Origin: Candidatus Nomurabacteria bacterium
GTDB lineage: Bacteria > Patescibacteriota > Minisyncoccia > Phycocordibacterales > UBA5272
DNA length: 64,000 nucleotides
Direction of reading: 5' to 3'
Assembly: GCA_037134695.1 (NCBI GenBank)
Contig: JBAXLU010000001.1
Coordinates: forward strand, 11,551 to 75,550
Positions 28,701 through 60,643 of this stretch are shown here, piece by piece. Made by a program: the position numbers and the translations under genes. The notes under the pieces were generated by a model that saw nothing but the letters and a program-made list of their open reading frames with translations, did no database searches and was not told the origin of the DNA. Within the stretch, counting starts at the first letter, position 1. Each line of letters starts with the position of its first letter.

Positions 28701-29423
28701 ATGAGGTATATGAAAAATTTTCAATCCAGAGATAATAAAAGTGGTGGTTACCGTGGAGAAAGAAGCGGAGGCAGAGATGAAGGTAGAAGTCGACCATCAT
28801 ATGGTGATAAAAGAGGGGGAGATAGAGGTGGTGACAGAGAAGCTACAATGTTTCAAGCTACTTGTAGTGAATGTAAAAAGAATTGTGATGTGCCTTTCCG
28901 TCCAGCAAGTGATAAGCCGGTATATTGTAGTTCTTGTTTCAGCGCTAAAAGAGAGCGTGAAGATAAGGAATATAAATCTGGATCTTTTAATCGTGAACCA
29001 AAAAGATTTTCAAATGATAGACCAACACCTACGACTTCATTTGTTCGTCCAGAAGTTAAATCAATTGGAGCTGATGACTCTACAAAGAAGCAATTAGCAG
29101 ATATTAGTTTCAAATTAGATAAACTTATAAATGTTATTGAAAAAATGACAGCAGTAAAGAATGAAACCCCAGTTCATGTTGTTGTTCCAGCTAAGGCACA
29201 GGTTAAAGTTGCACCAGTAGTAATTGCAAAAGCAAAAGTTGTTGCTCAACCACACGTTGTGAGCACTCTTCGCGGGGCAAAGAAAGTAGTATCTAAGGTT
29301 GTAGAGGTGAAGAAATCTGCACCTAAAGTTGCGGAAGTAAAGAAGGTTGTCGCAAAAAAGGTTGTGGCAAAGGCTGTGGTAAAGACAGTAGCTAAGAAAG
29401 TTGCTGTAAAGAAAACAAAGTAG
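28701..29423 (+). CDS. zinc-ribbon protein with Lys/Ala-rich histone-H1-like C-terminal tail
   Basis: 240-aa ORF; Arg/Gly-rich N-terminus, CSECKKNC...CSSC four-Cys ribbon, C-terminus AKAKVVAQ...VAKKVVAKAVVKTVAKKVAVKKTK. Confidence 0.5.
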   Translation: MRYMKNFQSRDNKSGGYRGERSGGRDEGRSRPSYGDKRGGDRGGDREATMFQATCSECKKNCDVPFRPASDKPVYCSSCFSAKREREDKEYKSGSFNREPKRFSNDRPTPTTSFVRPEVKSIGADDSTKKQLADISFKLDKLINVIEKMTAVKNETPVHVVVPAKAQVKVAPVVIAKAKVVAQPHVVSTLRGAKKVVSKVVEVKKSAPKVAEVKKVVAKKVVAKAVVKTVAKKVAVKKTK

Positions 29424-57136: not shown

Positions 57137-59272
57137 CTACCATTTAGTTACAATCAATAAATCATCCTCCTCCGTCTTTACATACTTCCATAATTCTTCA
57201 GAAATGAAAGGCATGAATGGGTGAATAACTATAAGTTGTTCACGAAGCAATTTTAATAATAAAGCTTGAGCACTGGCCTTATCTTTATCCTCTAATATTC
57301 TAGTCTTTCTTGTTTCTATAATGTCATCACAAAAGACTTTCCAGAAATAGTCATATATTTTCTCTGATGCAATATGCAATTTAAAGTCCTCAATATCTTT
57401 TGTTATGGCATCTTTTTTCTCACACCATGCATCATACACTGCTTGGTCCTCATCATTTAATTCCGCACCGCCTTCATAGTCAGTAGTCCTTTCAAGTACG
57501 AATCGTGATGCATTCCAAATTTTATTTGCAAACTTTTTATAAGCCTCAACTTTTTTTGGATCAAGATTCATATCAACTCCAGGAGCATTGTTTACAATTA
57601 ATCCCATGCGAAGAGCGTCCGTCCCATATTGATTTGATATATCAAGAGGGGAAATAACATTCCCTTTACTCTTACTCATTTTCTTTCCTTTTGCATCACG
57701 CACTAGCCCGTGAAGATAAACATGACTAAATGGAGTTTTGCCAGTTACATATATTCCAAGCATCATCATACGCACAACCCAGAATAGTAGTATGTCGAAA
57801 CCCGTCTCCATAACTTGCGTCGGATAATATTTTTCAAAATCCCCAGGCTTGGTATTTTGTAATGTCGCAAATGGCCACTGACCAGATGAGAACCATGTAT
57901 CGAATGAATCAGGGTCTTGCATTAGCTCGCCATTACATTTTTCACACACAGTTAATTTATTATCTAGGTCTACATATCCAGCATCACAGTTGTGACACAG
58001 TTTTGCAGGAATTGGTATCCCCCAGACAATTTGTCTTGAAATATTCCAGTCTTGAATATTTTCCATCCAATGATAAAAGATTTTTTCATGTTGCTCAGTT
58101 AAGATTTTTGTCTCACCATTTTTCACGGCTTCGATTGCTTTTTCAGCCAACGGTTTCATTTTTATAAACCACTGTGGTTTAACTTGTGGTTCAAGTTCGC
58201 GTTCACATTTATAACAAACAGAAACATCGTGAGAGTATTCATTATCTATTTTTACAAGTAATCCTTTTGCATCTAATTTCTCTACAATTTTCTCGCGCGC
58301 ATCTTTTATACTCATTCCAGAGAATTCTCCTGCGATAGGTAGCAACTTTCCTCTCTCGTCGATTATTTGTTCAAAATCTAAATCATATTTTTTTGCGATA
58401 TCGAAGTCAACTCCCGAATGCCACGGAGTAATAGTCATCGCACCGCTACCAAATTCTGGATCACTTGCCTCATCTTTGATAATTGTTGCTTCTATTGGTC
58501 CATTGATCCACTCAACCGTTAATTTGTCACCGTGTTTGTATTCCTTATAACGCTCATCATCCGGATGCATTACAACATACTTGTCTCCGAACTTTGTTTC
58601 AGGACGAACAGTTCCAATAGTAAAAGGTCCATATTTAAAATAATAGAATGGGTCTTTTCTTGTTACGTGTTCAGTTTCCAAATTAGAAAGTGAAGTTTGA
58701 TGTTTTGTACACCAATTAACTATTCTTTTTCCACGATAAAGAAGTTTGTCATCGTCTAGTTTCTTAAAAGTATTGTAAACAGTTTTTATTATTCCATCGT
58801 CTAGTGTAAAGACTTCACGTGACCAATCACAACTAGCACCTAGCTGGCGGATTTGTCCTTCCATAAATGATTTATTAAAAAGAGTAAAGTCCATAATCTC
58901 TTTATATAAATCTTCACGCTTCATATCAAATCGTGAGCGTCCTTCTTTCTCTAATTTTTTTTCATAAACAGTCTGTGTCTCAAATCCAGCATGGTCAGCA
59001 CCAGGAAGCCATAGTGTGCGCTTGCCATTCATACGATTGAAACGAATCAAAATATCTTCTACTGTTACGAAAAGTGCATGCCCTGCGTGTAGTGAGCCGT
59101 TAGCATTAGGAGGCGGCATTATTATGGTGTAAGTTTCTTTTCTCTCACCTTTTAAATTGTCAGGATTAAAGTATCCTCCTTTTTCCCACATTTCATATAA
59201 AGAAGGCTCAACCATTTTTGCATCAAATGGTTTCATTAATTGTTCTAAGTTTTTTTCGGGTGATTGCTTCAT
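57137..59272 (-). CDS. valS: valine--tRNA ligase (short form without C-terminal coiled coil)
   Basis: 711-aa ORF; HIGH-region PPPNANGSLHAGHAL, KMSKSKGNVISPLD and GTDALR tRNA-contact motif favour ValRS over IleRS or LeuRS. Confidence 0.7.
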   Translation of the reverse strand: MKQSPEKNLEQLMKPFDAKMVEPSLYEMWEKGGYFNPDNLKGERKETYTIIMPPPNANGSLHAGHALFVTVEDILIRFNRMNGKRTLWLPGADHAGFETQTVYEKKLEKEGRSRFDMKREDLYKEIMDFTLFNKSFMEGQIRQLGASCDWSREVFTLDDGIIKTVYNTFKKLDDDKLLYRGKRIVNWCTKHQTSLSNLETEHVTRKDPFYYFKYGPFTIGTVRPETKFGDKYVVMHPDDERYKEYKHGDKLTVEWINGPIEATIIKDEASDPEFGSGAMTITPWHSGVDFDIAKKYDLDFEQIIDERGKLLPIAGEFSGMSIKDAREKIVEKLDAKGLLVKIDNEYSHDVSVCYKCERELEPQVKPQWFIKMKPLAEKAIEAVKNGETKILTEQHEKIFYHWMENIQDWNISRQIVWGIPIPAKLCHNCDAGYVDLDNKLTVCEKCNGELMQDPDSFDTWFSSGQWPFATLQNTKPGDFEKYYPTQVMETGFDILLFWVVRMMMLGIYVTGKTPFSHVYLHGLVRDAKGKKMSKSKGNVISPLDISNQYGTDALRMGLIVNNAPGVDMNLDPKKVEAYKKFANKIWNASRFVLERTTDYEGGAELNDEDQAVYDAWCEKKDAITKDIEDFKLHIASEKIYDYFWKVFCDDIIETRKTRILEDKDKASAQALLLKLLREQLIVIHPFMPFISEELWKYVKTEEDDLLIVTKW

Positions 59273-59330: not shown

Positions 59331-59828
59331 ATGTTCAAAAAACAGTCTAAAGTTCTAAAACAAGGCTCAAAGACCTTGGCACAAAAAATTAGTAAAATTT
59401 CTCCAAATAAAAAACAGCTTCCAGATCATCATTTCAAGATTGTTAAGGTTAAGCGTGGATTAGATGGAATGGGATTATTTGCTGGAGAAGATATTAAAAA
59501 AGGGGAGATGATAATTGAATATATTGGTAATATCATAACCACAAAAGAGGCTAATGATATGACAGAGAATCAGTATCTTTTTGAAATAAATACGAGAAAG
59601 ACAATTGATGGATCACCAAAATGGAATATCGCACGTTATTGTAACCATGCATGTGGAGATGATGCAAATGCCGAGAGTGATATAAAGAAGGGAAGAGTTT
59701 TTGTAATCGCTACTAAAGAAATAAAAAAAGGAGAAGAAATTGTTTATGATTATGGAGAAGAATTTGTTAAAGAACACATCGCACCGAGTGGATGTAGATG
59801 TAGAGCAATTAAACATCATTATGTTTAA
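59331..59828 (+). CDS. SET-domain protein (putative protein-lysine methyltransferase)
   Basis: likely start MFKKQSK at 59331 (ORF-track start 59157 overlaps valS); GMGLFAGEDIKKGEMIIEYIG, ARYCNHACGDDANAE (NHxC), EEIVYDYG, Cys-rich post-SET GCRCRAIKHH. Confidence 0.6.
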   Translation: MFKKQSKVLKQGSKTLAQKISKISPNKKQLPDHHFKIVKVKRGLDGMGLFAGEDIKKGEMIIEYIGNIITTKEANDMTENQYLFEINTRKTIDGSPKWNIARYCNHACGDDANAESDIKKGRVFVIATKEIKKGEEIVYDYGEEFVKEHIAPSGCRCRAIKHHYV

Positions 59829-59898
59829 TTGCAGACAGTAGATTTTAGAAATCACCGCTGAGTGGGATAAATTAGATTTTAGATTAGATACAAATACA

Positions 59899-59936
59899 AC
59901 AAGAGTGGCACCTACGGTGCCACTCTTGTTGTATTT
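59899..59936 (+). terminator. intrinsic terminator after the SET gene
   Basis: ACAAGAGTGGCACC-TAC-GGTGCCACTCTTGT then TGTATTT. Confidence 0.7.
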
Positions 59937-60185
59937 AAAGTCTTTTTTAGTGTTTAATCTAACATCTAAAATCTAATGTCTAAAGTCTGTTCTTGCCAAT
60001 GCTTCGCATTTGCATTTAGTAGAAAAATAAAAATTTTAAAATAAAAAAGTTATCCACAAGTAAAAAATATTTTTTGCTTGTATGTATATGTATGAGTGTC
60101 ATACTTAGTGTATCGAGAGTAATGATCGCGGTCGTGATCAAAAAAATTACAAGTACTCTCTGATTTGTATAATAAAAATATTTTT

Positions 60186-60287
60186 ATGGCAGCAAAAAAG
60201 AAAGCGGTAAAGAAGGTAGCCAAGAAGGCAGTAAAGAAGGCAGCCCCAAAGAAGAAAGCCGCAAAGAAGTCAGCAAAGCGCGCATAG
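60186..60287 (+). CDS. possible 33-aa Lys/Ala-rich basic protein (histone-H1-like)
   Basis: MAAKKKAVKKVAKKAVKKAAPKKKAAKKSAKRA; followed by terminator AAAGCATCCA-CTCCCA-TGGATGCTTT + T9 (60308-60348); not in ORF track (<60 aa). Confidence 0.4.
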   Translation: MAAKKKAVKKVAKKAVKKAAPKKKAAKKSAKRA

Positions 60288-60643
60288 TCGCATTTGTGAA
60301 CTTAGAGAAAGCATCCACTCCCATGGATGCTTTTTCTTTTTTTTTATTCCAAAACTATTTCATTTACTGCGTTAGGAAAAGTTTTTACTCCTGGTTGTAC
60401 GTCTTGTACATCTTAGTCGTAAAAACTTTCTCTGCCTTGTATCTAAAACAGTTTTGGAACAAAAATATTGATTAAAAAACTATTCCATCCCAGCCAGAGG
60501 CTGGTCAGCCTCTGGCTGATACTTTTTGTCGTTACGAAATTTTTGTCAGTCAATGTAGGTCTACTACATCTCCATCTAAAAATTTCTAGACTCCTCGTAT
60601 CTGAAACAATTTTTTGCCAAAGAGGCTTCTTCACCAAAGATGA

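Follow-up and report, generated by a model that had tools for sequence, protein, structure and literature searches.

The stretch of DNA considered here, referred to below as the window, comprises 64,000 nucleotides of contig JBAXLU010000001.1 of Candidatus Nomurabacteria bacterium (assembly GCA_037134695.1, positions 11,551 to 75,550 of the forward strand), an inhabitant of groundwater with a very small genome. It is bacterial DNA, with an RNase P of class A, five tRNAs and a GC (guanine plus cytosine) content of 34%. The analysis concerns two of its genes, one encoding a small SET-domain protein and the other a Lys/Ala-rich mini-protein, designated KA, and their possible relation as enzyme and substrate. 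Both genes were pointed out in an earlier, sequence-only reading of the window, and its claims are taken up where the results bear on them.

59331..59828, + strand: gene of a SET-domain protein lysine methyltransferase, 165 amino acids (Pfam, phmmer search of the PDB, AlphaFold2 model, Foldseek, invariant motifs)
60186..60287, + strand: KA mini-gene, encoding the 33-residue Lys/Ala-rich peptide MAAKKKAVKKVAKKAVKKAAPKKKAAKKSAKRA (gene callers, synteny, codon-position bias)

The SET-domain protein and its family

The open reading frame (ORF) of the SET protein begins with ATG at 59331 and ends with TAA at 59826-59828. A longer version starting from TTG at 59157 was rejected, since it would overlap the beginning of valS, which is divergent, and the homologues do not back such a start. 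Residues 1-30 of the protein form a Lys-rich N-terminal tail; they are followed by a SET-N/SET core (about 31-150) and by a post-SET-like element, C155-x-C157-x4-H162. It is identical to MEI6810490.1, listed by NCBI as a "SET domain-containing protein" of Candidatus Nomurabacteria bacterium, and is thus already annotated automatically.

All the motifs by which the sequence-only reading had recognised a SET domain are present, namely G46-M-G48, I62-E-Y-I-G66, A101-RYCNHACG-109 and E135-EIVYDYG-142. In an alignment of 109 family members drawn from two family searches, the signatures characteristic of SET proteins (G46-M-G48, Y64-I-G66, R102-Y-C-N105-H106-A-C108 and E136-I-V-Y139-D-Y141) are invariant or at least 90% conserved. 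Residues G48, E63, Y64, G66, N105, H106, E136, Y139, Y141, C155 and C157 are invariant in all 109 sequences, and C108 of the NHxC motif is conserved in at least 90% of them and invariant in the 25 orthologues. The Pfam SET model (PF00856) covers the protein with all of its positions (1-105 of 105) at 86.4 bits, the cut-off being 22.4 (E=2.1e-24).

Recovery of the fold had been named beforehand as the test on which the assignment depended. The AlphaFold2 (AF2) model built with the 109-sequence alignment has a predicted local distance difference test score (pLDDT) of 87.3 and a predicted template-modelling score (pTM) of 0.83, and the top 50 Foldseek matches of this model in the PDB are SET domains only, each with probability 1.00. 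A model made with only 25 near-identical orthologues had a pLDDT of 46, which reflects the shallowness of that alignment and not a failure of the fold, because the deeper alignment raised the value as stated. The best structural matches are MLL1, G9a, GLP, NSD1 and MLL3/4, with template-modelling (TM) scores of 0.55-0.68, and phmmer found the SET domain of KMT2D as the best PDB sequence match (E=5.8e-19), followed by those of KMT2C, KMT2A, EHMT and NSD; the KMT2D and KMT2C matches range from 6e-19 to 2e-17.

The claim of a "Cys-rich post-SET tail" was overstated, as the segment G154-C-R-C-R-A-I-K-H162-H contains two cysteines and one histidine; the three residues themselves (C155, C157 and H162) are nevertheless invariant in the 25 orthologues, the invariance of H162 being a property of the orthologous clade. 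Together with C108 they make up a putative metal site of the pattern C-x-C-x4-H, compared with the canonical C-x-C-x4-C plus the NHxC cysteine. Distant relatives from the candidate phyla radiation (CPR) have C-x-C-x2-C at the same position. In every family character examined the protein is a SET protein, except that the third post-SET cysteine is an invariant histidine.

The closest matches in both sequence and structure are the eukaryotic enzymes of the KMT2 (MLL/Trithorax), G9a/GLP and NSD groups, to which the protein is 29-36% identical and with which it shares the GxG, YxG, NHxC and ELxYDY motifs. Its putative post-SET metal site is placed, like theirs, directly after the core. It differs from them in having a presumed His ligand in place of the third Cys, in its length of only 165 residues without accessory domains or WRAD-type partners, and in belonging to an organism without histones. 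The residues of the Phe/Tyr switch are Y3942 in MLL1 and F1152 in G9a. The window protein has a tyrosine here, like MLL1, and by analogy Tyr139 suggests mono- or dimethylation. Judging from the invariant cofactor-binding and catalytic motifs, the protein would be an active S-adenosylmethionine (SAM)-dependent protein-lysine N-methyltransferase, and it is very likely that it is functional and acts on endogenous targets.

The first ten residues of the protein (window 59331-59360) carry the consensus KQSKxLK, in which K4, S6, L9 and K10 are invariant or nearly so. In the AF2 model this extreme N-terminus has a pLDDT of about 71, as against 58-60 in the linker that follows, and a two-residue strand or bridge is formed at residues 4-5. 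This segment may bind to the SET domain and act there as a pseudo-substrate or an automethylation site.

The sequence-only reading assumed that SET methyltransferases are rare in bacteria. This does not hold for the phylum in question, where the protein belongs to a very large and highly conserved family of Patescibacteria (CPR). A set of 5.8 billion proteins contains 494 relatives of the window protein; the best 120 of the 494 are 61-92% identical and 160-210 residues long, and those that are named come from Paceibacterota, Patescibacteria or Gracilibacteria. With a more distant CPR member as the query, 4,075 clusters (90% identity) were retrieved, all named matches being Patescibacteria, and in a collection of one genome per species at least 566 species-representative genomes encode relatives (566 among the first 600 pattern matches). 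Relatives 46-53% identical occur in Bradyrhizobium and other Alphaproteobacteria. The loci nearest to the window, with valS 94-97% identical, come from a Nomurabacteria metagenome-assembled genome (MAG) and a bin of an uncultured bacterium. The literature searched for SET domains together with Patescibacteria, Parcubacteria or candidate phyla radiation yielded no relevant paper on SET proteins of CPR bacteria.

The gene is endogenous and vertically inherited, as can be seen from orthologues 61-92% identical over many MAGs, from preserved synteny and from a native base composition (32.1% GC in the SET gene versus 34.1% in the window). That the best solved structures are eukaryotic KMT2 enzymes might be taken as a sign of a recent horizontal acquisition from a eukaryote, but the PDB contains few bacterial SET structures, which biases the top matches towards eukaryotes. 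Identity to eukaryotic SET domains is about 30%, as opposed to 45-92% for thousands of bacterial relatives, and with the native GC content and the synteny kept across a deep clade such a transfer appears barely credible.

Discussions of SET proteins from bacteria mostly treat them as effectors that hijack eukaryotic chromatin, and the sequence-only reading noted that they are often effectors or chromatin-like regulators. CPR bacteria are commonly host-associated, and the protein could in principle be secreted by an episymbiont-type bacterium in order to methylate proteins of its host cell, in the manner of NUE, LegAS4/RomA, BtSET and BaSET. The characterised bacterial SET proteins are indeed mostly effectors (PMC3980110), and there is a weak NCBIfam match to the Dot/Icm effector AnkI/LegAS4 (E=2e-13). 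This match to model NF043024, however, reaches 49.9 bits where the cut-off is 550, and it is confined to the SET part. The effectors of Legionella (LegAS4/RomA), Burkholderia (BtSET) and Bacillus anthracis (BaSET) share the SET catalytic domain with the window protein. The latter differs from them in that it lacks ankyrin repeats and a secretion context and has no chromatin of a eukaryotic host as a target. Thus neither a full-length effector match nor a secretion signal or system, the marks of a secreted nucleomodulin, was found. The N-terminus is highly basic, with no hydrophobic or other known signal; no secretion-system genes adjoin SET; its neighbours are housekeeping genes whose synteny is kept over deep divergence; the base composition is ordinary; and the family is found in thousands of environmental CPR lineages. 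Nothing points to an effector here, and a secreted role is very improbable.

The KA mini-gene and the DNA upstream of it

The Lys/Ala-rich ORF, which the sequence-only reading had placed about 360 bp downstream of the SET gene, starts 357 nt past the SET stop codon. Its product contains 15 Lys, 1 Arg, 12 Ala and 3 Val among 33 residues arranged as an xKKx tetrad repeat, a composition of the histone H1-like kind. The ORF is called by gene callers, and the identical peptide is encoded on 18 contigs; exact KA peptides are absent from the clustered protein collection. The peptide had no match in Pfam and NCBIfam, including the curated H1-like models. The features that surround the gene are as follows.

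60050..60058, + strand: DnaA-box consensus TTATCCACA (invariant part AGTTATCCACA), a predicted site about 136 nt before the KA start, invariant in alignment A4
60078..60105, + strand: putative upstream KA promoter, TTGTAT, 16 nt, TGtCATACT (extended -10-like), read from the sequence
60115..60160, + strand: conserved hairpin in the presumed KA 5' leader, with outer stem GAGAGTA/TACTCTC, inner stem TGATCGC/GTGATCA and an invariant GGTC loop
60146..60173, + strand: proximal sigma-70-like promoter ATTACA-16-TATAAT, matching the consensus at 10 of 12 positions, kept in relatives and ending 12 nt before the KA ATG
60304..60347, + strand: intrinsic-terminator-like hairpin with a T-run after the KA gene, read from the sequence

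The possibility that the ORF is untranslated, foreseen in the sequence-only reading, is contradicted by its pattern of variation. The frame is open in every lineage, begins with MAAKKK or MVAKKK and varies in length from 18 to 73 codons by whole repeats. Between pairs of equal length the differences at codon positions 1, 2 and 3 number 72, 65 and 187, and the KA genes of loci L003 and L020 differ by 8 nucleotides, all synonymous. Lysine is encoded by AAG and AAA in a ratio of 12:3, while AAG makes up 28% genome-wide. Because the frame stays open across lineages, varies mostly at third positions and prefers AAG, we conclude that KA is, on the evidence of its sequence variation, a real, translated gene.

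The opposite view is that the segment 60000-60340 is a non-coding RNA or regulatory DNA, which would leave SET with no neighbouring substrate. Two observations speak for it: the DNA upstream of KA is more conserved than the neighbouring proteins and contains a hairpin with some covariation, and no Shine-Dalgarno motif precedes the KA ATG. The lack of a ribosome-binding site is normal here, however, because the genome is almost devoid of such motifs. In addition to the codon-level evidence, the same Lys/Ala-rich sequence is found in frame as the N-terminal tail of SWIB proteins (L108, L130 and L148), and the non-coding explanation is highly improbable. Shine-Dalgarno-like motifs occur in 3 of the 59 window genes, and a TATACT/TATAAT-like box stands 6-12 nt ahead of many start codons, which suggests that mRNAs of this genome are as a rule leaderless or nearly so.

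The approximately 190 nt upstream of KA (59995-60185) are conserved at the DNA level more strongly than the flanking proteins (alignment A4). The 64-kb window has just two perfect copies of the DnaA box, this one included, and AGTTATCCACA was also observed 116-233 nt upstream of KA-like ORFs in very divergent loci lacking SET (L090, L095, L102, L106, L121, L132 and L147). DnaA is predicted to bind there. A replication origin at this place was considered and rejected, as there is a single perfect box and the GC skew has no clean switch. The TTGT, TG and CATACTTA elements of the putative upstream promoter are invariant or nearly so in A4.

The leader hairpin has a minimum free energy of -18 kcal/mol (z=-2.27), with 83.7% of alignment cells paired, compared to 31-49% in slid controls, and 10 double-sided changes, compared to 5.4±2.2 in shuffles. 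The compensatory changes convert GATC/GATC to GACC/GGTC or GATCC/GGATC. Covariation gives the predicted hairpin modest support. A scan of the SET-KA intergenic region and the leader against Rfam, at gathering and E-value thresholds, returned sub-threshold hairpin noise only. The upstream conservation supports the view that KA is important and regulated. It also hints that the role of KA has to do with DNA, and it has no direct bearing on SET.

By their tetrad-repeat Lys/Ala(/Pro) composition the KA peptides resemble H1-like/AKP-repeat proteins, such as Hc2, AlgP, Bordetella BpH and the tails of mycobacterial Hlp and HBHA. They differ in being only 18-73 residues long, a tail alone, and no hidden Markov model of those families matches KA. 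The Lys/Ala/Pro-rich tails of HBHA and Hlp carry methyl-lysines; the mycobacterial methyltransferase is not known to be a SET enzyme. As with KA, the number of Hc2 repeats varies between lineages (PMC2848022).

Mini-ORFs of 18-73 codons starting with MAAKKKA[AV]KKVAKK are widespread (L089-L155), including contigs of 60-76% GC. In nine metagenome loci a HemK/PrmC-like methyltransferase gene, identified by eye, lies downstream of the KA-like gene in convergent orientation. The mini-protein family seems to be undescribed. It is of note in its own right: the DnaA box and the leader are conserved, and annotation easily passes the family over.

Linkage of SET and KA and the candidate substrate

In this lineage SET belongs to a conserved block, HSP20-valS | SET-KA(-secA), in which HSP20 lies beyond valS. 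Of the 39 orthologous SET loci (L001-L039), four end within about 350 nt past SET, leaving 35 that can be evaluated. A KA ORF follows SET on the same strand in 30 of the 35, within about 500 nt in 23 cases and at 0.9-3.7 kb in seven. KA stays beside SET where valS is absent (L023, L037) and where secA is not downstream (the window, L001, L002, L081-88). For the reciprocal test, metagenome loci were sought with a degenerate DNA pattern encoding M[AV]AKKKA[AV]KKVAKK; of the 67 that matched, 40 have at least 1.5 kb upstream and were evaluable. All 14 evaluable KA peptides ending in KRA or KRG have SET upstream; among the KA-like peptides with other endings SET is present in 2 of 48, and 26 of these have ample upstream sequence and no SET.

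The explanation that we consider best, while holding it at slightly less than even strength, is that the SET enzyme acts on endogenous lysine-rich nucleic-acid-binding proteins, with KA as the leading candidate. The enzyme would work in the cytoplasm on the bacterium's own proteins of this kind, and KA, H1-tail-like and expressed from a promoter of its own, would be the best candidate among them. Methylation of its lysines would tune the binding of the polycation to DNA or another polyanion, or shield KA from proteolysis. The enzyme would be guided to the same polyanion by the Lys-rich N-terminal tail of SET or, in the homologues from Alphaproteobacteria, by the fused Lys/Ala-rich C-terminal tail. 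For KA in particular, the role of physiological substrate is conceivable on the sequence evidence, with the doubts somewhat outweighing the indications.

The company kept by the family elsewhere is consistent with such targets. All ten alphaproteobacterial homologues (L061, L062, L068, L072-L075 and L078-L080) have a fused C-terminal tail of 60-150 residues, Lys/Ala/Arg-rich and H1-like. A SWIB/MDM2-domain gene (PF02201, E=2e-32) lies next to SET, in convergent orientation, in five of 31 distant CPR loci (L046, L052, L064, L065 and L071). The KA-type tails of SWIB proteins and the DnaA box before KA genes likewise point to nucleoid-type partners. The fused tails and the SWIB links hint that SET proteins are found in the company of lysine-rich, DNA-associated proteins. 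The alphaproteobacterial tails are rich in Lys, Ala, Arg and Glu, and some contain (SKAKT)n repeats.

A number of observations weigh against KA as the substrate. No KA was found downstream of SET in five of the 35 evaluable orthologous loci (L026, L031-L034), and none within 6 kb in any of the 31 loci of the distant CPR clade. In the reciprocal test SET lies near the KA-like gene in 14 of the 40 evaluable metagenome loci and is missing nearby in the other 26. The order valS-SET (32 of 39 loci) is kept no worse than SET-KA (30 of 35), and several loci without SET have KA followed by secA. SET and KA form transcription units of their own, divided by a strong terminator. The fused Lys/Ala-rich tails might serve solely to target the enzyme to DNA, without being substrates, and the chlamydial precedent discussed below is contested. 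A correlation between the Lys-rich N-terminal tail of SET and the presence of KA was also sought and discarded, as loci L037 and L039 lack the tail and have KA. Within one deep clade, then, the adjacency is robust, but it is not universal and persists no better than that of valS and SET. Since valS-SET is equally kept and KA-like genes are widespread without SET, synteny is circumstantial for a substrate relation, and adjacency alone is weak evidence of it.

It may therefore be that the adjacency is mere inherited gene order. The SET enzyme would then be real, with its substrates elsewhere, among nucleoid proteins (SWIB, HU-type) or in the translation machinery; the ribosomal-protein methyltransferases Rkm1-4 of eukaryotes are SET-domain enzymes. 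Besides the valS comparison, the separate transcription and the distant SET loci without KA, this explanation is favoured by the linkage of KA to secA in many SET-less loci and by the presence of SWIB beside SET in five of the 31 loci of the distant clade. It is opposed by the retention of KA next to SET after the linkage to valS or secA has been lost, by the fusion of SET to Lys/Ala-rich tails in Alphaproteobacteria, and by the fact that nothing positive points to any other specific substrate. Inherited order alone is a substantial possibility, which we hold as distinctly less than probable.

Several known systems resemble the one proposed, with KA as a target of SET. In Chlamydia, cpnSET of C. 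pneumoniae was reported to bind and methylate Hc1 (PMC3980110), and the co-occurrence of SET and SWIB alongside the H1-like Hc1 and Hc2 has been described for Chlamydiae (PMC6426960). As two sources relate it, Murata (2007) found methylation of Hc1 by the chlamydial SET protein and Pennini (2010) did not see it for NUE (PMC3980110, PMC6426960). The likeness of cpnSET and NUE (CT737 of C. trachomatis) consists in a small SET protein whose genome is reduced and also codes for DNA-binding proteins of the Lys/Ala-rich, H1-like kind, and it extends to CPR relatives that have SWIB beside SET or Lys/Ala-rich tails fused to SWIB. Unlike the window protein, which gives no sign of secretion, the chlamydial enzymes are type-III-secreted and methylate host histones. 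The candidate partner is also different, being a free-standing peptide of 33 residues encoded beside SET, whereas Hc1 has about 125 residues and a structured N-terminal domain.

Go1-SET of the archaeon Methanosarcina mazei was proposed to methylate MC1-alpha (PMC3980110). By this description it is likewise a minimal prokaryotic SET protein with a proposed endogenous, small, basic, DNA-binding substrate; MC1 is, however, a folded protein of 93 residues methylated at a single lysine, and KA is a low-complexity Lys/Ala-rich peptide. A lysine-rich target is also known for BaSET, which acts on histone H1 (PMC3980110).

A bolder version of the proposal, which we regard as unlikely in its entirety, is a chromatin-like "writer plus tail" module of CPR bacteria. 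A SET protein of 130-190 residues would methylate a free-standing, H1-tail-like polycation of 20-70 residues, the promoter with the DnaA box and the structured leader would tie nucleoid compaction to replication control, and the invariant KKQSK peptide at the N-terminus of SET, which according to the model docks as a short strand, might be a pseudo-substrate or automethylation site.

The possible pairing of SET with a free-standing H1-tail mini-protein, like the mini-protein family itself, appears to be unreported. This example is a further indication that SET lysine methyltransferases are ancient enzymes of bacteria, passed on vertically and directed at bacterial targets. Even among the most reduced genomes, free-living or episymbiotic, SET genes are common and strongly conserved. 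If KA is the substrate, the pair is simple enough to be rebuilt with a synthetic peptide and would allow a direct test of whether the lysine methylation of nucleoid polycations predates eukaryotic chromatin.

Neighbouring genes and the Zn-finger protein

Three further features of the window belong to the surroundings of SET or were proposed to be connected with it.

28701..29423, + strand: Zn-finger protein of 240 amino acids with an RGG/RGD-rich N-terminus, a CxxC-x17-CxxC treble-clef zinc finger and a V/A/K-rich tail
57137..59272, - strand: valS, 711 amino acids, divergent from SET over a 58-bp spacer and part of the conserved block HSP20-valS | SET-KA
59892..59936, + strand: intrinsic-terminator-like hairpin after SET, with a perfect 21-bp stem, an A-tract before it and a T-tract after it

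The Zn-finger protein had been described as a Zn-ribbon protein with a long AKK/VAK tail and suggested as a second partner of SET. The zinc finger stands (PF23477, E=6.4e-15; TIGR04272, E=1e-14), and the tail turns out to be rich in Val, Ala and Lys rather than in Ala and Lys. The partnership was not borne out: the gene is 30 kb away, and no link to SET was found.

The terminator hairpin after SET is situated inside a larger imperfect palindrome (59833-59983) built of direct and inverted TAGATTTTAGA motifs. In most of the orthologous loci a strong hairpin of unrelated sequence is found 10-60 nt past the SET stop codon.

The gene after KA varies. Among the 39 orthologous loci, 18 have secA downstream of KA, and 17 of the 67 metagenome loci, most of which lack SET, have a KA-like gene immediately before secA. 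In loci L002, L081-L083, L150 and L155, KA is followed by genes for a PfkB-family kinase and S-adenosylhomocysteine hydrolase. Both are absent at 60288-60643 and from the whole 64-kb window, and a link to the SAM cycle through these neighbours was discarded as confined to the sublineage of nearest relatives. In the distant CPR clade (L040-L077), 12 of the 31 loci have a conserved protein of about 208 residues, divergent from the minimal SET gene and 3-168 nt upstream of it (for example, L045 80-706, - strand); it had no Pfam match.

The order valS-SET persists even where valS is only 41-57% identical to that of the window. In the syntenic loci L001-L038 the identity of valS to the window gene is bimodal, 41-58% or 73-97%, and this grouping does not follow the identity of SET or HSP20: locus L003 has a SET protein 71% and a valS 50% identical, and in L012 the values are 61% and 85%. 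This suggests that two types of valS occupy the same position.

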